Virus genome (UHGV): UHGV-0209075
Strand: one strand, 5' to 3'
Source: a virus
Length of the DNA stretch: 41,775 nucleotides
Part shown: in pieces, positions 3,868 through 41,775 of the stretch
Layout of the letters: each line of letters starts with the position of its first letter
Numbering within the stretch: the first letter of the stretch is position 1
Translations under genes and position numbers: made by a program
The notes under the pieces: model-generated
Database searches by the model: none
The model's input: the letters and a program-made list of their open reading frames with translations, nothing else
Told to the model about the DNA's origin: nothing

Positions 3868-4293
3868 TTAGTGCATCACCACGGCATTTCCCGCCGGACC
3901 ACCACGATTCATCTGATTGAAACCAGCGATCGCCACTGCAACAAAATCATCAGCGTCTCTCACCAGTCGTTCCCGCGTCTCCACCAGTTCCCGAAACCAG
4001 GCTGAACTGTGGCTGCGCATTCGGGCCACCAGCAGAGGCGGCATTGCTTTTTCGATCGCTGGTAACAACGCCTGAATTTTTTTAACCGCATCAGGGGTGT
4101 CTTTCTCCACCCAGCGGAAAATTTTCTGAGTATTGCGAGCCAGGGCTTCCGGATGGCTGTCGTCATACAGTTCCGGGAACGTCATTCCCAGCTCGAAATA
4201 CGCTTTGGTAATTTTCGCAGCCGGTACTTTTTCGCCGTCCGGATGCGCCCAGGCATTCATCGCCATGCGGATGTGTTCATGCTTGATTTTCAT
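3868..4293 (-). CDS. CII-position regulator, resembles YdaT-family proteins of Rac-like prophages
   Basis: 141-aa ORF translationally coupled to cro-like gene (start/stop overlap at 4290-4293); N-terminus MKIKHEHI; synteny. Confidence 0.5.
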   Translation of the reverse strand: MKIKHEHIRMAMNAWAHPDGEKVPAAKITKAYFELGMTFPELYDDSHPEALARNTQKIFRWVEKDTPDAVKKIQALLPAIEKAMPPLLVARMRSHSSAWFRELVETRERLVRDADDFVAVAIAGFNQMNRGGPAGNAVVMH

Positions 4294-5362: not shown

Positions 5363-5682
5363 AACGGCATACCAACCCACCCCGCCCCACAGAATGCAGG
5401 GCAATACTTCGAGTTACCAGGCAGTGGTCAGGGGTTAAGTAGCCAGCCCGAGGCGTAAGAACATGACGGCAGGGTTCAACTTTAATAACTATGCAGCAGG
5501 TTTTTGTTCCGCTACCCCGGCGTTAAGGGGAAACAGAGGATTTCTCAGTGGGCGAAGTCAAACATCAGAATGGAAGGCATCCCGGGATCGGCAAAGAAGC
5601 AGCAATGGCGCTTTATATTGACATCAGCGCCATTGCCGGACAGGTAAGAATTATCAGAGCGGTAACTAAGCGGTATGCGCCT

Positions 5683-5883
5683 TTACTTCAGAAAGTCTCT
5701 GGTGAGTGCACCGAAGATATTGTCAACGATTTCGTCATCGAACTGCGAGGACTCATCTTCAGTTACAAGGTGACCACAATTTTTGCAGATGGCTCCCGCG
5801 AAACTGTCAGAGCCCTGCGGCTTAAAGGATGTGTCAAAGACTTCGCCACCACATTCTGGGCAAGAAAACTTGATTGTACTCAT
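5683..5883 (-). CDS. small zinc-ribbon protein (CPECGG...CKNCGH), acidic C-terminus; function unknown
   Basis: 66-aa ORF from ATG 5883 preceded by AGAGGA (8-nt spacer); two CxxCG pairs; a 9-bp-stem hairpin (about 5603-5634) lies downstream; convergent with repressor. Confidence 0.5.
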   Translation of the reverse strand: MSTIKFSCPECGGEVFDTSFKPQGSDSFAGAICKNCGHLVTEDESSQFDDEIVDNIFGALTRDFLK

Positions 5884-5975
5884 AACCAATTTCCTCTCGA
5901 GTAACAGACCCCTCAGAGGATACCACCTCGCCTGACGTGGTTAAAAGCAGGCAACGCTAACCACAAGGAGCCGAC

Positions 5976-6194
5976 ATGCAGAAACGAGAACCCGTCATCA
6001 TCGCGCCAGACTATACCGATGATGAACTTTATGAGTGGATGCGCCAGAAAATTAATGCAGCGCAGGATCTGAAATGGGCCAATGAAGCCAAGGCTAAGCA
6101 GGCTGAAAATCTGTCCGCTCTGGAGCAGGATATCACCAGGCTGGAAAAAGCAGCGGCATTAAGCATTGCCAGAATGATTACATACCAGCGTTAA
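5976..6194 (+). CDS. small coiled-coil protein (72 aa); function unknown
   Basis: ATG 5976 preceded by AAGGAG (5-nt spacer); divergent from zinc-ribbon gene with 92-bp intergenic region. Confidence 0.5.
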   Translation: MQKREPVIIAPDYTDDELYEWMRQKINAAQDLKWANEAKAKQAENLSALEQDITRLEKAAALSIARMITYQR

Positions 6195-6200
6195 TAGCTA

Positions 6201-6283
6201 ACCAACGAAGCTAAGGTTGGTAATTAAGGAGTTCTCCACGGGTGAAGTGGAGTGCGTGCGCCGGACACGGGTGAACATCCGGC
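6201..6283 (+). other. three tandem stem-loops; the second and third share the motif CACGGGTGAA
   Basis: ACCAAC/GTTGGT (6201-6221), CTCCAC/GTGGAG (6234-6252), GCCGGA/TCCGGC (6260-6283); 10-mer CACGGGTGAA at 6237-6246 and 6266-6275; no U-tracts. Confidence 0.4.
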
Positions 6284-6578
6284 ACTGACAGTTTACTGAA
6301 AGGATATTTCTCTGAAAAGTCAGAGCATAACGCGAAAGCACACGGAGAAGCTCGTCTCTCTGTACTTTGTCGTTAAATTTAATTCGACCGTGCGCTTCCG
6401 GTTGTGGCAATCCGCGAAATGGCGCGGCGGTAAGTATGGCGGGGTTATTCCTTCCCCTTGAGGACACCGGGTTGTCAGGCTGACCATACGCTTAAGTGAC
6501 AGCCACGCCACAATATCCATGTGTAGTCTTTGGTGGCATCAGTTCTACTCCGTGACTGCTCTGCCGCCCTTTTTAAAG

Positions 6579-6732
6579 TGAATTTTGTGATGCGGTGAAT
6601 GCGGCTCAGCGCACGCGGAACAGTTAAAACAAGCGGTCTTTTACGGGCGTAACGGGAATGCTCTGTATCCGGCGTTAATTGTTAACTGGTTAACGTCACC
6701 TGGAGGCACCAGGCACCGCATCACAAAATTCA
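6579..6732. repeat. 154-bp element bounded by a perfect 19-bp inverted repeat (TGAATTTTGTGATGCGGTG / CACCGCATCACAAAATTCA)
   Basis: Arms at 6579-6597 and 6714-6732 are exact reverse complements; right arm ends 5 nt before the GAGGA SD of the 6750 ORF; interior contains GTTAACTGGTTAAC and CCTGGAGGCACCAGG palindromes. Confidence 0.6.
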
Positions 6733-6749
6733 TTGTTGAGGACGCGATA

Positions 6750-6938
6750 ATGGAAACGTTATTACCAAACGTTAATACGTCTGAAGGTTGTTTTGATATT
6801 GGTGTTCTGCTCAGTAACCGGGAGTTTACGGAAGATGCCATTAAGATGAGAAAATATGAACCTTATCTTCTCAATGATAATTCCATACTTTCCAGAATTG
6901 CCCTTCTTGAACTTGGTATTATCGGAGAACAGCAGTGA
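6750..6938 (+). CDS. small protein (62 aa), AT-rich cargo gene; function unknown
   Basis: ATG 6750 preceded by GAGGA (7-nt spacer); lower GC than neighbours. Confidence 0.4.
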   Translation: METLLPNVNTSEGCFDIGVLLSNREFTEDAIKMRKYEPYLLNDNSILSRIALLELGIIGEQQ

Positions 6939-7123
6939 CTTCAGCATTTGCGCTGGTGATGACCGTTTTTCTTATAACGGGTGAGCCACAAAATGTGATT
7001 ACCGGAATTTATGACAGTAAGTCATCCTGCATTCAGGTAAGGGACGAACAAAAAATCCCCGGTGAATGCCTCCCGTTAAAAAAAGTATCGCTGAACCTGA
7101 ATAACGAAATACCGGCTGGATAA
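6935..7123 (+). CDS. small protein (62 aa) with N-terminal hydrophobic segment and two Cys; function unknown
   Basis: GTG 6935 overlaps the upstream stop (GTGA) and is preceded by GGAG (7-nt spacer), indicating translational coupling. Confidence 0.4.
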   Translation: MTSAFALVMTVFLITGEPQNVITGIYDSKSSCIQVRDEQKIPGECLPLKKVSLNLNNEIPAG

Positions 7124-7218
7124 CCCGCCAGCCATATTAACGCCATACCAACGGATTAAAAATGCCAGCAATGGCAGGGATTCGTTCACCCTGAAATCTG
7201 TAATGAGGTTAAAACACA

Positions 7219-9693
7219 ATGAGTAAAATCTTTATTTGCGCTGCTATTCCTGACGAACAGGCCATAAAAGAAGATAGCGCTGTTGCGGTGGCCACTGCCA
7301 TTGAAGCCGGTGATGAACGTCGCGCCCGCGCAAAATTTCACTGGCAATTCCTGGAACATTATCCGGCTGCTCAGGACTGCGCTTATAAATTTCTTGTTTG
7401 CGAGGATAAACCCGGTATACCCCGCCCTGCCCTCGATTCCTGGGATGCTGAATATATGCAGGAAAACCGCTGGGATGAGGAATCCGCTTCCTTTATTCCG
7501 GTCGAACCAGAATCCGATCCGATGAACGTCAATTTTGACAAGCTGTCCCTTGAAGTACAGAACGCGGTCCTGGTTAAGTTCGGTACATGTGAAAACATCA
7601 CCGTTGATATGGCGATTGACGCGCAGGAATTACTGCAGGAAGACGTTGCTACCTTTGACGGGCATATCGTTGAAGCACTGATGAAAACGCCTGAAATTAA
7701 CGCTATGTATCCGGAACGCAAACTGTTCGCTATCGGATGGGTTAAACACAAATGTAATCCGGGTGCCAAATGGCCAGAAATTCAGGCTGAATTACGTAAC
7801 TGGAAAAAACGGCAGGACGCAGAGCGCAAAGAGACTGGAAAATACACGTCTGTTGTTGATCTCGCCCGCGCCAGAGTCAATCAACAGCACACTGAAAACT
7901 CAGCAGGAAAAATCAACCCAGTCACTGCCGCCATTTGTCGCGAATACAAGCAGACATGGAAAACGCTGGATGAAGAACTGGCCTACGCTCTCTGGCCTGG
8001 CGATATTGATACCGGAAACATTGACGGCAGCATCCATCGCTGGGCAAAAAATGAAGTTATCGACAAAGATCGCGAAGACTGGAAGCGCATTTCCGCATCA
8101 ATGCGCAAACAACCCGATGCCGTTCGCTACGACCGTCAGACTATTTTTGGCCTTGTCCGTGAGCGTCCGATCGACATTCACAAAGATCCCGTAGCACTGA
8201 ACAAATACATCACTGAATACCTGACTACCAAGGGCGTGTTTGAAGATGACGAAGGAACAAATCAGGGCACAGCTGGTACTCTCCCGTCACCAGTACCAGA
8301 AACTGATGCAGTGGAAACGGCAATGCCGGACAACGAAAAAACCGAATGCGAAGTGGAAGACGAACCATCTGTAGAGCGTGAGGGACCGTTCTACTTCCTT
8401 TTCACCGATAAGGACGGCGAAAAATACGGTCGCGCAAACAAACTTTCTGGTCTGGAAAAAGCACTGGCCCTGGGAGCTACGGAAATCACAAAAGAGGAAT
8501 ACTTCGCACGTAAAAACGGCACGTACTCAGGTTCACAACAAAATACTGGTGCATCTGACACGATCGCACAACCAGAGCCGGTAAAAGTTACCGCTGACGA
8601 AGTAAACAAAATTATGCAGGCAGCCAATATCAGCCAGCCTGACGCCAATAAGTTGCTTGCTGTATCACGTGGTGAATTTGTTGCAGGGATTAGCGCCCCG
8701 AATGATCCGAAATGGGTGAAGGGGATTGAAACCCGCGATTCAGTGAATCAGAACCAGCAAGAAACGGAACAGAACGGCCAGAAAGCGGAACAAAACAGCC
8801 CAAATGCGTTACAAAACGAGCCAGAAACGAAACATCCTGAACCAGTGGCGCAACAGGAAGTGGAAAAAGTCTGCACCGCCTGCGGTCAGACCGGCGGCGG
8901 CAACTACCCTGATTGTGGCGCGGTGATGGGCGACGCAACATACCAGGAAACATTCGATGAAGAGTATCAGGTTGAAGTTCAGGAAGATGATCCGGAGGAA
9001 ATGGAAGGCGCTGAACATCCACACAAGGAGAACACTGGCGGCAATCAGCATCACGATAGCGATAATGAAACTGGCGAGACGGCAGATCACTCAATTAAGG
9101 TGAACGGTCATCAAGAAATCACATCCACCAGCAGGACGTGTGACCATCTAATGATCGACCTTGAAACCATGGGAAAAAATCCTGATGCCCCGATCATCTC
9201 AATAGGTGCAATATTTTTCGATCCGCAAACCGGAGATATGGGACCGGAATTTAGTAAGACTATCGATCTGGAAACTGCTGGCGGAGTCATTGATCGGGAC
9301 ACCATTAAATGGTGGCTTAAGCAATCACGCGAAGCGCAATCTGCCATTATGACCGATGAAATCCCGTTAGATGATGCACTGTTACAATTGCGGGAATTTA
9401 TCGACGAAAACTCCGGTGAATTTTTTGTTCAGGTCTGGGGAAATGGAGCCAACTTCGACAACACGATTTTGCGCCGTTCATACGAACGGCAGGGGATCCC
9501 CTGCCCGTGGCGTTACTACAACGATCGCGATGTACGCACAATCGTTGAGCTGGGGAAGGCCATAGACTTCGATGCCAGAACGGCTATTCCATTCGAAGGT
9601 GAGCGCCATAATGCACTTGATGACGCCCGTTACCAGGCAAAATACGTTTCAGCTATCTGGCAAAAACTGATCCCGAGTCAGGCTGATTTTTAA
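7219..9693 (+). CDS. large early-left protein with C-terminal DEDDh (DnaQ-like) 3'-5' exonuclease domain
   Basis: Exo motifs MIDLETMG, WGNGANFDNTIL and HNALDDARYQAKY in roughly residues 645-810; Glu/Gln/Asn-rich acidic linker; N-terminal ~340 aa unassigned. Confidence 0.7.
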   Translation: MSKIFICAAIPDEQAIKEDSAVAVATAIEAGDERRARAKFHWQFLEHYPAAQDCAYKFLVCEDKPGIPRPALDSWDAEYMQENRWDEESASFIPVEPESDPMNVNFDKLSLEVQNAVLVKFGTCENITVDMAIDAQELLQEDVATFDGHIVEALMKTPEINAMYPERKLFAIGWVKHKCNPGAKWPEIQAELRNWKKRQDAERKETGKYTSVVDLARARVNQQHTENSAGKINPVTAAICREYKQTWKTLDEELAYALWPGDIDTGNIDGSIHRWAKNEVIDKDREDWKRISASMRKQPDAVRYDRQTIFGLVRERPIDIHKDPVALNKYITEYLTTKGVFEDDEGTNQGTAGTLPSPVPETDAVETAMPDNEKTECEVEDEPSVEREGPFYFLFTDKDGEKYGRANKLSGLEKALALGATEITKEEYFARKNGTYSGSQQNTGASDTIAQPEPVKVTADEVNKIMQAANISQPDANKLLAVSRGEFVAGISAPNDPKWVKGIETRDSVNQNQQETEQNGQKAEQNSPNALQNEPETKHPEPVAQQEVEKVCTACGQTGGGNYPDCGAVMGDATYQETFDEEYQVEVQEDDPEEMEGAEHPHKENTGGNQHHDSDNETGETADHSIKVNGHQEITSTSRTCDHLMIDLETMGKNPDAPIISIGAIFFDPQTGDMGPEFSKTIDLETAGGVIDRDTIKWWLKQSREAQSAIMTDEIPLDDALLQLREFIDENSGEFFVQVWGNGANFDNTILRRSYERQGIPCPWRYYNDRDVRTIVELGKAIDFDARTAIPFEGERHNALDDARYQAKYVSAIWQKLIPSQADF

Positions 9694-9708
9694 TGTTCAA
9701 CCCTAATT

Positions 9709-9734
9709 GCCGCTAACCGTATATAGTTAGCGGC
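9709..9734 (+). other. 9-bp-stem hairpin between exonuclease gene and excisionase-like gene
   Basis: GCCGCTAAC-cgtatata-GTTAGCGGC; no clean U-tract, so attenuator or protein-binding site rather than strong terminator. Confidence 0.3.
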
Positions 9735-9751
9735 GGTTATGAGATATAGCT

Positions 9752-9955
9752 ATGAGTAGCTTATTTTTAACCGAAGATGAATTGCTAATATTAACGGGCT
9801 GCAAATATGCAAGCCACCAGCGAAAATGGTTAACGGAAAACGGGCTTCCGTTCTATACCAATCGTAGTGGCAAACCGATTGTCAGCCGGGATCTATTTAC
9901 CTGCAATAAAACTTTACCACCACGCGAGGTAGAGCCGAATTTTGGTGCAATCTGA
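9752..9955 (+). CDS. excisionase-like small DNA-binding protein (candidate recombination directionality factor)
   Basis: 67-aa ORF whose TGA overlaps the integrase ATG (TGATG at 9953-9957); position immediately upstream of int; weak SD. Confidence 0.45.
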   Translation: MSSLFLTEDELLILTGCKYASHQRKWLTENGLPFYTNRSGKPIVSRDLFTCNKTLPPREVEPNFGAI

Positions 9956-10980
9956 TGGGAAGACGAAGGAAAAATCCTGAACACGAAAAACTACCTCCAA
10001 ATGTATATCCAAATAAATATAGTTATGTATGGAAACCAACATCCAGAGAATCTGTCACACTAACCGCCATCAAGGATGGTTTAGCTGCTTTATGGAAAAG
10101 GTATGAGGAAACTGTAAATAATCGCGATCGCGCAATGACATTCGGTCGCTTGTGGGAAAAATTCCTCGCCAGCGCCTATTACAGTGACCTCAGTCCAAGA
10201 ACACAAAAAGATTATCTGCAACATCAAAAAAAGTTGCTTGCCGTATTCGGTAAGGTGCCGGCAGATTCCATAAAACCAGAACACATCCGTCGATACATGG
10301 ACCAGAGAGGGGGGCAGAGTAAAACGCAAGCCAACCATGAAAAAAGCAGTATGTCCCGCGTTTACAGTTGGGGATATGAGCGAGGGTACGTGAAGGCTAA
10401 CCCATGTGCAGGTGTAAGTAAATTCAAGGCCAAAAACCGCGAACGATATGTAACCGACAAAGAATACCAGGCAGTATTAAGCGTTGCACCTCTTCCTGTT
10501 TTTATCGCAATGGAAATTGCCTATCTGTGTGCAGCGAGGGTTTCCGATGTGTTATCGCTGAAATGGGAGCAGATTGGAAACGACGGGATCTTTATCCAGC
10601 AAGGGAAAACAGGGAAAAAACAGATAAAAGCATGGAGTCCACGATTACAGGCGGCGATCGAAAAAGCAAAACAGTTACCAACATCCGCCTATGTAATCAG
10701 CAATCAATACGGCAACCGATATATGTACAAAGGCTTTAACGAAATGTGGGTAGAAGCAAGAAATCGCGCAGGCAAAATTTCAGGTATTTTAACCGACTTC
10801 ACCTTTCATGATCTGAAGGCGAAAGGAATTTCAGACTATGAAGGAAGCAGCCGGGATAAGCAACTTTTCTCTGGTCACAAAACCGAGGGGCAAGTGCTAA
10901 TCTATGACAGGAAGGTTAAAGTTTCACCGACACTTGATGTCCCGTTACCTGAAAATATTCCAAGAAAATATTCCAAGTAA
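9955..10980 (+). CDS. int: tyrosine integrase, lambda Int family
   Basis: N-terminus MGRRRKNPEHEKLPPNVY resembles lambda Int MGRRRSHERRDLPPNLY; 341 aa; adjacent to att core. Confidence 0.85.
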   Translation: MGRRRKNPEHEKLPPNVYPNKYSYVWKPTSRESVTLTAIKDGLAALWKRYEETVNNRDRAMTFGRLWEKFLASAYYSDLSPRTQKDYLQHQKKLLAVFGKVPADSIKPEHIRRYMDQRGGQSKTQANHEKSSMSRVYSWGYERGYVKANPCAGVSKFKAKNRERYVTDKEYQAVLSVAPLPVFIAMEIAYLCAARVSDVLSLKWEQIGNDGIFIQQGKTGKKQIKAWSPRLQAAIEKAKQLPTSAYVISNQYGNRYMYKGFNEMWVEARNRAGKISGILTDFTFHDLKAKGISDYEGSSRDKQLFSGHKTEGQVLIYDRKVKVSPTLDVPLPENIPRKYSK

Positions 10981-36085: not shown

Positions 36086-36090
36086 GCATG

Positions 36091-36121
36091 TAAAAAGGCC
36101 CCAACACATGTGCGTGGGGCC
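36091..36121 (-). terminator. hairpin + U-tract on minus strand between cargo ORF and holin
   Basis: GGCCCC-13 nt-GGGGCC followed on minus strand by UUUUUAC. Confidence 0.45.
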
Positions 36122-36517
36122 TGAGAGTATACATGGTTTCAGTCAACTGCATGGTGCCGGGTGCCTCCCGGTGAATTCAGTACCAGCACCTGAATCCGCG
36201 ATTATCCCATATACCTACTCGCTGATTGCCCCTCCGCACAGGGGGATTCACCATGCCAGTTTCTTTTAACAAACTCCCCGCAAACCAGACAACAGTCAAC
36301 CGCCTGAATTGTGAAGTATTTAAAAATTTCTCCCGCTAACTGATACCCGGCTAACAGTCTGGCGTTTTCTTTTTCAGCAACGGGAAAGCAACAACCACCA
36401 CACCCGCCACCAGCACACCGTCAGCCAGCACTGACATTATCCGGCTGCTGCAATGCCACTCACAAAAACAGTAAGCAATCACTTTTTACCGTAACAAGTG
36501 ATAATCCAGATATGTAT

Positions 36518-36844: not shown

Positions 36845-36984
36845 TGGACCGTATAACAAACACTCAATCAATACTTAACAGAACTTTTATTTTTGACAAA
36901 CATATAATATTTTCAACAATATCCTGAGCCAGGTATATTTCAGTATAAGGCTCTGCCGGAAGGAATCTGGAAGAATGAATATAG

Positions 36985-37058
36985 CGCGCTGTACTGGATT
37001 CGAACCAGTGACCGATTGCTTAGAAGGCAATTGCTCTGTCCGGCTGAGCTAACAACGC
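36985..37058 (-). tRNA. tRNA-Arg (anticodon UCU)
   Basis: Hand-folded cloverleaf: acceptor GCGTTGT/ACAGCGC, D-stem GCTC/GAGC, anticodon stem ATTGC/GCAAT with loop CTTCTAA, T-arm ACTGG-TTCGAAT-CCAGT. Confidence 0.8.
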
Positions 37059-37158: not shown

Positions 37159-37234
37159 TGGTGGCCCTTGCTGGATTTGAACCAGCGACCTGGCGATTAT
37201 GAGTCGCTCGCTCTCACCACTGAGCTAAAGGGCC
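37159..37234 (-). tRNA. tRNA with CAU anticodon (Ile2/lysidine-type or Met), CCA encoded
   Basis: Hand-folded cloverleaf: acceptor GGCCCTT/AAGGGCC, anticodon loop CTCATAA, T-arm GCTGG-TTCAAAT-CCAGC; resembles E. coli ileX by eye. Confidence 0.8.
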
Positions 37235-39973: not shown

Positions 39974-40001
39974 GGAAAAAACAAAACCCGCCGAAGCGGG
40001 T
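39974..40001 (-). terminator. rho-independent terminator downstream of hok
   Basis: AACCCGC-cgaa-GCGGGTT followed on minus strand by U-rich tract. Confidence 0.55.
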
Positions 40002-40070
40002 TAAGTGCGGGTGCGTTGAGGATGCCTGACACATCAGAGGCGGCGAGGGATTTCTCCCTCGCCAAGTCTC

Positions 40071-40226
40071 TTACTCCTCAGGTTCGTAGACTGTGAAGAC
40101 AGCGACCTCCGTCTGGCCGGTTCGAATTCGTACCTCGCAGAGGTCTTTCCTCGTTACCAGTGCCGTCACTATGACGGTTAAACAGATGACGATCAGGGCG
40201 ATTAACATCGCCTTTTGCTGCTTCAT
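40071..40226 (-). CDS. hok: Hok/Gef-family type I toxin
   Basis: MKQQKAMLIALIVICLTVIVTALVTRKDLCEVRIRTGQTEVAVFTVYEPEE is near-identical to E. coli HokD/RelF as I recall it; AAGGAG SD. Confidence 0.8.
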   Translation of the reverse strand: MKQQKAMLIALIVICLTVIVTALVTRKDLCEVRIRTGQTEVAVFTVYEPEE

Positions 40227-40283
40227 AGCCTGCTTCTCCTTGCCTTTCGGCACGTAAGAGGCTAACCTAGATTTGCCGTTCAT
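40071..40283 (-). CDS. mok: mok-like in-frame N-terminally extended reading frame over hok
   Basis: ATG 40283 opens a 70-codon frame ending at the hok stop, as I recall for chromosomal mok/hok loci. Confidence 0.5.
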   Translation of the reverse strand: MNGKSRLASYVPKGKEKQAMKQQKAMLIALIVICLTVIVTALVTRKDLCEVRIRTGQTEVAVFTVYEPEE

Positions 40284-40347
40284 AGATTGAGCCTCAGATT
40301 AATGTTAAGCGTCTTGCAGGACGCGTAATGTTAACTGGGGCTTTTCT

Positions 40348-40383
40348 CTATCTGCCTTTGGTGTTCATGCCTGAGGCAGATAG
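40348..40383. other. 10-bp perfect-stem hairpin in the hok/mok upstream region
   Basis: CTATCTGCCT-16 nt-AGGCAGATAG. Confidence 0.4.
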
Positions 40384-40479
40384 CCTCAAGCACCCGCAGC
40401 AATTCTACTTAAGTTAGATAAGCTTTTCTATGGTATTCTCTCAGCGTCCCGTAAATACAGTCTCGGCTCATCATTTTTA

Positions 40480-40737
40480 TCACAGGTGCGAGGAAAATAT
40501 ATAGCGCCCTCCATCAAGCATAACGAAATACATTTTCCATTCATCGCCATTCCTCAATTTAATACGAAGACTTTCCCCGCAAGTGTATTTATTAAACAAC
40601 TGTTCCGATGTGCTAGTAAGAGGTATTTTTACCGTTATTACAACTACTGCCCCACCATTTAACTCTCGAAGTTCAGCATCCGCATCCACAAAAGATGAAT
40701 AAATGTTATGATCTGGGTAATCAACAATTAACTGCAT
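40480..40737 (-). CDS. hypothetical protein (85 aa), AT-rich cargo gene
   Basis: ATG 40737 preceded by AAGGAG (5-nt spacer); about 33% GC. Confidence 0.5.
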   Translation of the reverse strand: MQLIVDYPDHNIYSSFVDADAELRELNGGAVVVITVKIPLTSTSEQLFNKYTCGESLRIKLRNGDEWKMYFVMLDGGRYIFSSHL

Positions 40738-40876
40738 ATTCACTCCTTAAATATAGCAACTAAAACAAACAACGATTTAACAGTAGGAATTGTTTTTATA
40801 ACATATGAACGGTGCAAGATCTATCCAGATGAAGCCTCCCCTCACACCCCCCGTCTCATTACATGCATTTACTATC

Positions 40877-41392
40877 TCACCGTAAAACATCCTCCACGCT
40901 TATCAGTCCGTTTCGCTTCAGGTAGTCCATCGCCTTCTCCGGTAATTTGCAGTCCGGCTTGGCTTTTTTCAGTTGGCTGACCAGTCGTTTAACCCACATT
41001 GTTAATTCGCTAACCTGATTGCCGGAAGCTGGTGGGTTGTCGGCTTTACCCAGAATGACAGCACTGCAGGCCTCTTTGAGTACCCAATCAACAGCATCTT
41101 TCCATGCTCCTGTTTCGACTGGTGGATTCTCACGCTTTACCTGTTCATAAAAGCGCACGGCTTTAACCAGTCCTTCTGATGTCAGTGGCACAGGCGGGGC
41201 AGTGAATAACGCCTGAATTTCATAGCTCGGCCTGTCGTTGCAATCCTCTTTTGTCGGTACATATTTCCAGTCACCAACCCACGGCTCCCCCTGTGAGTCC
41301 GTAATGCCTTTTTTCACGTAGCGATATCGCCATGCAACTGGTTTTGCCTGCCCTGCCGTTTCATGCCCTTCCTGATAATTAATCTCACTCAT
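40877..41392 (-). CDS. hypothetical nin-region protein (171 aa)
   Basis: Start ATG overlaps stop of upstream small ORF (translational coupling). Confidence 0.5.
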   Translation of the reverse strand: MSEINYQEGHETAGQAKPVAWRYRYVKKGITDSQGEPWVGDWKYVPTKEDCNDRPSYEIQALFTAPPVPLTSEGLVKAVRFYEQVKRENPPVETGAWKDAVDWVLKEACSAVILGKADNPPASGNQVSELTMWVKRLVSQLKKAKPDCKLPEKAMDYLKRNGLISVEDVLR

Positions 41393-41740: not shown

Positions 41741-41775
41741 TTAACTACCGCCCTTTCGGGCGGCCTCCTGATGTT

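Follow-up and report, generated by a model that had tools for sequence, protein, structure and literature searches.

The virus genome UHGV-0209075 carries on its minus strand a small gene of 85 codons, which lies just upstream of a hok toxin gene and which we call ORF85; the whole analysed stretch of 41,775 nucleotides (nt) is referred to below as the window. The reading that we tentatively prefer, and which we hold to be quite possible but by no means assured, is that ORF85 is translated and that its soluble product of 85 residues belongs to an unnamed family confined to lambdoid (Rac/Qin-like) prophages, that the gene would be expressed early by read-through, that its product may act as a stoichiometric binder, and that it is not a component of the hok/sok system. 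That ORF85 is a real gene is, for its own part, close to certain. The gene was first pointed out in an earlier note made from the sequence alone, and the homology and structure searches proposed there led to an unnamed family, with no clear match to a characterised one.

Taken alone, ORF85 is another uncharacterised small phage protein, and current understanding is not overturned by it. Its family is coherent and has a confident structural model; it is absent from Pfam, PHROGs, NCBIfam, and PADLOC, and its only structural relative, YebV/DUF1480, is an orphan as well.

A conserved family of 85-residue proteins

The gene and its immediate signals are located as follows.

40480..40737, minus strand: ORF85, the coding sequence of 85 amino acids (aa), with ATG at 40737 and TGA at 40482-40480, read from the sequence and the list of open reading frames (ORFs)
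40743..40748, minus strand: the Shine-Dalgarno (SD) sequence AAGGAG of ORF85, with a 5-nt spacer to the ATG
40738..40876, minus strand: AT-rich, non-coding leader or intergenic region of 139 nt and 37% GC, between ORF85 and the upstream gene of 171 aa

The earlier note had claimed an 85-aa gene starting from this ATG behind AAGGAG, with an AT-rich upstream region of its own, and we find both, the gene being a real one on the minus strand with a strong ribosome-binding site. An alternative start codon, GTG at 40743, falls within the SD sequence and is therefore implausible as the start of ORF85.

The length of the frame is not significant by itself, as a stop-free run of the same length or longer occurs in 236 of 2000 mononucleotide shuffles of positions 40401-40900. 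The status of ORF85 as a gene follows instead from four lines of evidence: (i) profile searches gathered about 48 clusters of homologues with 33-99% identity, nearly all of exactly 85 aa, from prophages of E. coli, E. albertii, E. marmotae, Klebsiella, and Raoultella, so that the length is kept down to 33% identity and across three genera; (ii) ORF85 differs from an 82%-identical allele (L003) by 21 synonymous and 26 non-synonymous changes, which at this informative divergence gives a ratio of non-synonymous to synonymous rates (dN/dS) of 0.27, and in distant family pairs the proportion of non-synonymous differences (pN) is 0.26-0.44 against a synonymous proportion (pS) of 0.58-0.97, the synonymous sites being saturated; (iii) a strong SD sequence stands at the same distance in all subfamilies, as AAGGAG in L003 and L006, AAGGGG in L012 and L018, and TAGGAG in L005; and (iv) an AlphaFold2 (AF2) model built with 25 diverse family sequences is confident, with a predicted local distance difference test score (pLDDT) of 92.4 and a predicted template modelling score (pTM) of 0.82, whereas with six near-identical sequences it was poor (pLDDT 54). 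The pattern of substitutions indicates that the family is under purifying selection.

The opposite view is that there is no functional gene here, only a chance ORF or a decaying pseudogene in an AT-rich spacer. It can appeal to the non-significant length, to the existence of several frameshifted or truncated alleles, and to the dN/dS of about 1 between ORF85 and the near-identical L001 allele, a value that comes from nine differences only. Set against a length, an SD sequence, and a selective signature that are all conserved, and against a confident model that depends on the alignment, this view is extremely unlikely. The damaged alleles themselves are informative in another way. A considerable proportion of the family's database alleles (P0010, P0011, P0014, P0015, P0017, P0043, and P0048) are frameshifted and continue in another frame, that of P0010 corresponding to window positions 40428-40550, and many truncated copies of the family gene exist. 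To judge from these copies, ORF85 would be dispensable to the host, and their frequency in resident prophages fits a function of benefit to the phage and not to the host.

The extent of the family depends on how it is searched. Word-indexed, single-sequence, and six-sequence searches returned E. coli copies only; the wider family was reached through an exhaustive hidden Markov model (HMM) profile search, which added P0016 (85 aa, 36% identical to ORF85), and the roughly 48 clusters were then gathered by searches seeded from P0016 and from the joint alignment. One E. coli allele, P0012, is 74% identical and 87 aa long. All homologues are annotated as "hypothetical", and ORF85 itself is already present in the databases as a "hypothetical protein" (UniProt A0A0H0GSF9, RefSeq WP_001176099). 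The subfamily of the window type comprises three alleles, with 100%, 93%, and 73% protein identity, and is carried by 42 of 5426 complete E. coli genomes, chromosomal every time. A single one of 50,697 phage records holds the family gene, namely the 8-kb Rac fragment MN652886, where it is annotated as "HP5"; no match was obtained in the GTDB species-representative genomes or in the PLSDB plasmids, and no second copy or fragment was found within the window. Literature searches on MN652886 and WP_001176099 returned nothing. ORFs of 85-87 aa that adjoin family members (L025 5342-5599 and L028 2587-2844) were considered as relatives and are unrelated to the family.

The protein is soluble and mildly acidic (isoelectric point, pI, of 5.2), without a hydrophobic segment, and the family as a whole has a pI of about 5 with a net charge of -2 to -4 in most members. 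The AF2 model shows a compact split beta-barrel of six strands whose one helix falls between the third and the fourth, and the conserved segments of the family are a strand-3/helix motif, IP-x-T-[ST]-T...L...Y, and an NG[DE] hairpin. The earlier statement that the gene has no recognisable motifs agrees with our searches: ORF85 alone matches no Pfam or PHROG family, and 25 family members compared with Pfam, PHROGs, NCBIfam, and PADLOC gave nothing significant, defence and anti-defence families included. Weak matches to FliN, Phage_depo_C, and PilZ-like domains (E>=0.007) were discarded. A sequence-profile search of PDB with the family found nothing, and Foldseek with the AF2 model found nothing at E<0.01 in PDB or BFVD.

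No catalytic, cofactor, or nucleotide-binding motif was found in ORF85. Because such motifs are lacking and the protein has only 85 residues, a binding role suggests itself: ORF85 may bind a host or phage macromolecule stoichiometrically and non-enzymatically, and the binding surface would most plausibly be formed by the IP-x-T-[ST]-T...L...Y segment together with the NG[DE] hairpin. An anti-defence or exclusion role, as the earlier note had suggested among others, is possible.

That note had also given about 33% GC, the lowest in the window, and had taken the gene to be recently acquired. The lowest GC content of the window does fall in the ORF85 region, though the value is not as low as first stated. 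ORF85 has 38.4% GC and the interval 40480-40876 has 38.0%; the value of 33.3%, the minimum over all 258-nt segments of the sequence, belongs to positions 40549-40806, which span the 5' two-thirds of ORF85 and the leader, and the lowest 397-nt segment is 40409-40805 (35.8%). As for recent acquisition, the family gene has 37-39% GC (31-41% at third codon positions, GC3) in all subfamilies, in loci of 45-53% GC and hosts of 50-57% GC, and the value is unchanged even across pairs with saturated synonymous divergence. Since the low GC content is found in every subfamily regardless of the GC content of host and locus, it is an old and stable family trait rather than a mark of recent arrival.

Expression and the adjoining hok/sok locus

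The last 600 nt and the first 66 nt of the window align continuously (96%) to positions 6737-7404 of prophage L002, so that its two ends are contiguous, and the window behaves as a complete, circularly permuted lambdoid phage genome. By Pfam and PHROG assignments, an early operon runs on the minus strand from 4293 to 59, with genes for YdaT, a DUF1376/DnaT replication organiser, a lambda-P-like protein, DUF1627, and Ead/Ea22, and resumes at 41775 with DUF7167, a 58-aa gene, the 171-aa gene, ORF85, hok/sok, a 90-aa gene, DUF968, RusA, and Q. In other words, ORF85 lies in the nin-equivalent region, between the lambda-P-like replication gene and RusA/Q, where the earlier note had placed it. Its neighbours are listed here.

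40877..41392, minus strand: upstream early gene of 171 aa, phrog_660, in RefSeq "hypothetical" or Ead/Ea22-like; no terminator before ORF85
40402..40430, minus strand: promoter-like site for the hok mRNA, TAGAAA-17-TAGAAT, from a consensus scan; it starts about 50 nt past the ORF85 stop
40275..40345, plus strand: Sok antisense RNA, placed through its homology with sokW as annotated in phage 933W (L004 2476-2546); Rfam sok match of 111.7 bits at 40221-40395
40071..40283, minus strand: mok/hok toxin frames (hok 40071-40226), Pfam HOK_GEF E 6e-22, phrog_251, annotated hokD in L002, homologous to mokW/hokW of 933W
39985..40002, minus strand: intrinsic terminator after hok, from a terminator scan; downstream limit of the shared module of about 1 kb (homology blocks begin at 39983-39999)
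39983..41036 (approximate), minus strand: co-inherited mosaic module that takes in the final 130-160 nt of the gene upstream, then ORF85, hok/sok, and the terminator, on at least three prophage backbones

The terminator scan finds no terminator between the 171-aa gene and ORF85, and none between ORF85 and hok in the window; nor is there a gene-strand sigma-70 promoter above the scan threshold in the window, in L018, or in L006. With no terminator upstream and no such promoter, read-through is expected: ORF85 would be transcribed from the early-right operon and, if so, would be made during lytic growth or induction. It should be mentioned that two antisense promoter-like sites, at 40685-40712 and 40777-40804 on the plus strand, one of them with a TG extension, would yield transcripts across the ORF85 start if used; their number is within the shuffle expectation.

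ORF85 lies upstream of hok, as the earlier note described, and on the same strand. Alignments of the window with L001, L002, L003, and L004 delimit the shared module. Within the window-type subfamily the linkage is nearly perfect, since hok directly follows ORF85 in 41 of the 42 E. coli carrier genomes and in 14 of 14 window-type loci, but hok is downstream in 0 of about 30 loci of the other three subfamilies. The co-occurrence with hok across prophages, which the earlier note had proposed to analyse, is thus a property of one subfamily and is absent from the others. An Rfam scan of the region returned only sok and a match to isrK that stays below threshold (RF01394, 28 bits where the gathering score is 50; 39981-40062, minus strand) over the 3' untranslated region and terminator of hok, which is probably the hok terminator hairpin only.

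Could ORF85 then belong to the hok locus, its protein, or transcription or translation through its frame, modulating hok expression? The arrangement of the Qin prophage of K-12, where relBE lies upstream of hokD (relF), would be a parallel. The linkage just described, the co-inheritance of the block of about 1 kb on three backbones, and the mere 50 nt or so, free of any terminator, between the ORF85 stop and the -35 of hok would all suit it. The hok locus, however, is self-sufficient, as it has a full-length sok match, a mok frame, its own promoter-like site, and a terminator. Hok-like cassettes occur at 10,951 places in 4716 E. coli genomes, and they adjoin ORF85 in only 41 genomes, so that more than 10,900 cassettes (about 99.6%) do without it; phage 933W (L004 2200-2613) shares only positions 39999-40412 of the window; and the members of all other subfamilies stand beside unrelated cargo. 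The divergence of the two parts is also unequal, the hok leader being 97% identical between the window and L003 and ORF85 82%. The HOK_GEF and sok models match only 40071-40395 and not ORF85, and the ORF85 protein matches no DNA- or RNA-binding domain. We read the linkage from these comparisons as the probable common descent of a small mosaic module rather than a coupling, and a functional tie between ORF85 and hok, whether through the protein or through passage of polymerase or ribosome, seems to us highly unlikely.

The suggestion that ORF85 is antitoxin-like likewise has to be given up. Hok has its own mok and sok, and the three other subfamilies never occur beside it. A type II antitoxin would also be expected to show a DNA-binding fold, and in the 25 family members there is no Pfam or NCBIfam domain of the helix-turn-helix, ribbon-helix-helix, AbrB, or Phd kind, the model being a lone, all-beta barrel. 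The layout differs as well: ORF85 is a solitary gene without a coupled toxin gene as a partner, with a gap of 139 nt on its upstream side and one of about 200 nt before mok.

Several points weigh against the reading that we prefer. The timing of ORF85 expression was judged from gene order and simple consensus scans; the binding mechanism is inferred, Foldseek having given no significant PDB or viral match, and YebV, the closest structural relative, is without known function; and the near-perfect linkage to hok in 41 of 42 genomes and 14 of 14 loci leaves room for a tie specific to this subfamily. In addition, an extended -10-like element, TGnTATAAA, is seen by eye at 40795-40803 (minus strand) in the three window-type alleles, with A and not T at -7. 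In Klebsiella and Raoultella a strong intrinsic terminator follows 39-58 nt after the stop of the family gene, and in some of these loci another lies about 230-250 nt upstream of it, a layout that looks like an autonomous, moron-style unit.

These last features point to the main alternative, in which ORF85 is a moron expressed in the lysogen from its own promoter in the AT-rich leader and benefits the host or the prophage, for instance through superinfection exclusion or through a stress response of the kind suggested for YebV. The 139-nt AT-rich gap that contains the -10-like element, the flanking terminators in Klebsiella and Raoultella, a GC content below that of the neighbouring genes, and the company of classic moron or defence genes (hok/sok, DinI, a colicin-immunity-like gene, LprI, and PD systems) are what one would expect of such a gene. 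On the other side, no gene-strand promoter exceeds the threshold in the three sequences scanned, the candidate -10 has no T at the conserved position -7, no terminator of its own directly follows ORF85 in the window, and the family gene is always co-oriented with the early operon, while true cargo is often on the opposite strand. The frequent frameshifts and truncations also speak against a benefit to the host. An upstream motif, ATG(T/C)TA(T/C)AAAA, which looked like a possible promoter shared across subfamilies, is rejected as such, because in Klebsiella it is the coding 3' end of a decayed C5 methylase gene (...MCYKK..*). On balance we regard the moron alternative as rather unlikely, and keep read-through from the early operon as the tentative explanation.

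Three further observations concern the rest of the genome. The DicF antisense RNA (Rfam RF00039, 58.3 bits) is found at 6518-6569 on the plus strand, within the leftward early operon; an exonuclease gene of 824 aa (7219-9693) and an integrase gene (9955-10980) lie downstream of it. The small RNA STnc100 has a full-length match (RF02076, 139 bits) at 36086-36285 on the minus strand, with the tRNAs on one side and the lysis genes on the other. Two phage tRNA genes closely follow Q on the minus strand, at 36984-37058 and 37159-37234, a tRNA-Arg(tct) and a tRNA with a CAT anticodon (Met or Ile2); at this position prophage L002 has Thr and Ile tRNAs.

A variable slot next to the family gene

In every family locus that was fetched, the gene lies on the strand of the replication genes, after these and their trailing small ORFs, and in all loci examined it is directly followed by a variable stretch that ends at DUF1367, YbcO, RusA, NinG, or Q. 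This stretch may contain an LprI-like gene, insertion sequence (IS) elements, a GIY-YIG protein, HNH_2 and DUF2971 proteins, a GmrSD_N protein, a theta (HolE)-like gene, an acetyltransferase, DinI, or a colicin-immunity-like gene, and in the window subfamily it contains hok/sok. In the slot directly downstream in related prophages, PADLOC recognises four known or candidate defence proteins, PD-T7-3 (E 4e-165), PD-T4-3 (E 6e-138), an NsnA/PD-T4-2-like (GmrSD-like) protein, and PDC-S31, the matched proteins being encoded at L006 7951-9318, L007 9856-10662 and 10904-12010, and L009 8762-9820. The accessory hotspot invoked in the earlier note therefore exists, in the adjoining slot, but ORF85 is not a cargo gene in it: it is the conserved neighbour, the last such gene ahead of variable accessory and defence genes. 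The slot resembles a hotspot for defence genes in Rac/Qin-like lambdoid prophages, and no description of it or of its flank gene was found in the literature searched.

How the cargo is exchanged can be glimpsed from duplicated ends of the family gene. In L022 and L023, cargo at 5594-9717 is bracketed by the intact family gene and by a 3' second copy at 9718-10000, which consists of the last 146 nt of the family gene and about 140 nt downstream of it and is 82-85% identical; in L021 the same piece is orphaned (4001-4283). Orphan 3' fragments of this kind, all unannotated, are present in 397 of 5426 complete E. coli genomes. A 3' fragment duplicated across the cargo suggests that cargo is exchanged through recombination within or beside the family gene, the 3' end of which apparently serves as the homology anchor. 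Whatever its function, ORF85 is a convenient marker of a lambdoid prophage slot in which validated defence systems (PD-T7-3, PD-T4-3, and GmrSD-like ones) and hok/sok alternate, and it could serve in mining for new cargo.

In Raoultella (L028 2841-4928) the family gene is immediately preceded by an intact gene for a 695-aa C5 DNA methylase, and in Klebsiella prophages (L018 4834-4989; L012 about 5840-5925) only a 3' remnant of the methylase is left (...GNAVPPPFAE...MCYKK*), with a strong terminator before it.

Comparison with known systems

The topology of the ORF85 model fits the description of a published structure, 8VVA, of the K. pneumoniae protein KPN_02352, which belongs to YebV/DUF1480 (PF07351) (PMC11809132). 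YebV/DUF1480 proteins have 78-85 aa and form, like ORF85, a six-stranded split beta-barrel capped by its single short helix, which comes after strand 3 and before strand 4, and both families are restricted to Enterobacterales and without known function. By eye, several residues that are invariant in the ORF85 family can be paired with residues of E. coli YebV if an offset of 8-9 is kept constant, namely G28/G19, I38-P39/I29-P30, N63-G64-D65/N55-G56-E57, Y70/Y62, and D75/D67, which may be taken as a lead and not as a test. Sequence comparisons give no significant relationship: none of the 25 family members matches PF07351 at E<=1; hhalign of ORF85 with YebV has a probability of 0.2% with one sequence and of 3.9% (P 0.011) with a 20-sequence YebV profile; in an HMMER shuffle test the score is -0.9 bits, a value reached by 323 of 5000 shuffles (p about 0.06); and 8VVA was listed neither by the PDB profile search nor by Foldseek. 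There are also clear differences. YebV has a conserved pair of cysteines, C32/C39, and members of the ORF85 family have 0-1 Cys; YebV is chromosomal and highly conserved (at least 79% identity among the 80 best-matching loci kept), whereas the ORF85 family is prophage-borne, low in GC, and only 33-99% identical. Judged from the predicted model, ORF85 is YebV-like in fold, yet it is not a member of DUF1480 or of PilZ.

The surroundings of yebV offer a few observations of their own. In E. coli K-12, yebV is 3 kb from holE, with yebW (DUF1482) and pphA between them, and DUF1482 adjoins dicB in prophage L002. A theta (HolE)-like gene directly follows the family gene in several Klebsiella-type loci (L005 538-795, L014 6336-6500, L016 6348-6500, and L019 5325-5462). 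The yebV-holE neighbourhood is possibly an old prophage remnant.

PilZ domains, cyclic di-GMP (c-di-GMP) receptors of proteins such as YcgR, Alg44, and MrkH, are longer than ORF85, at about 110 aa. A further idea is that of a phage counter-defence "sponge": during infection a PilZ/YebV-like split barrel would neutralise either a nucleotide second messenger or an immune protein of the host by binding to it. A small, acidic, single-domain protein in an early operon, with conserved polar residues clustered at the strand-3/helix junction and the NG[DE] hairpin, would be suited to such a task. The PilZ motifs are absent, however: [DN]xSxxG occurs in 0 of 25 members, and RxxxR in 3 of 25, all window-type alleles, at residues 58-62, a position not equivalent to the N-terminal one in PilZ. 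No PilZ-associated output domains or neighbours were seen, the searches of PADLOC, Pfam, and PHROGs gave no anti-defence match and Foldseek nothing significant, nor was an association with any one host defence system noticed in the genomes. The sponge idea accordingly has a very low probability in our view. Nearly as doubtful, and to be regarded as improbable, is a broader proposal in which the ORF85 family is a very diverged phage branch of the YebV/PilZ-like split barrels and would serve, early in infection, to neutralise a signalling nucleotide or an immune component of the host, with its 3' end and the downstream hairpin as the anchor of an undescribed Rac/Qin-like defence hotspot. If true, this would provide the first functional lead for the orphan chromosomal YebV.

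With the hok/sok type I systems (hok/sok of R1, hokW/sokW of 933W, and hokD), ORF85 shares its neighbourhood only, as it has no similarity to Hok or Mok, and the canonical RNA-antitoxin mechanism of these systems does not need it. A closer positional parallel is found in the small nin-region ORFs of lambda and P22 (ninA-ninH, ren), which are short and delayed-early, many of them of unknown function. ORF85 occupies the same map position, from P to Q, and is co-oriented, but it has no sequence match to the Pfam and PHROG families of Nin and Ren proteins.

As for the slot, some of the defence systems of Vassallo et al. 2022 reside in lambdoid prophages (bioRxiv 10.1101/2022.05.12.491691). The defence hotspots of P2 and P4 prophages (Rousset et al. 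2022, PMC9122126; Vassallo et al. 2022) resemble the slot beside ORF85 in that a conserved phage gene stands next to content, validated defence genes included, that differs among prophages which are homologous in other respects. They differ in that the ORF85 slot is lambdoid and extends from the replication genes to Q, and in that its flank gene is a rare accessory ORF and not a core structural gene.

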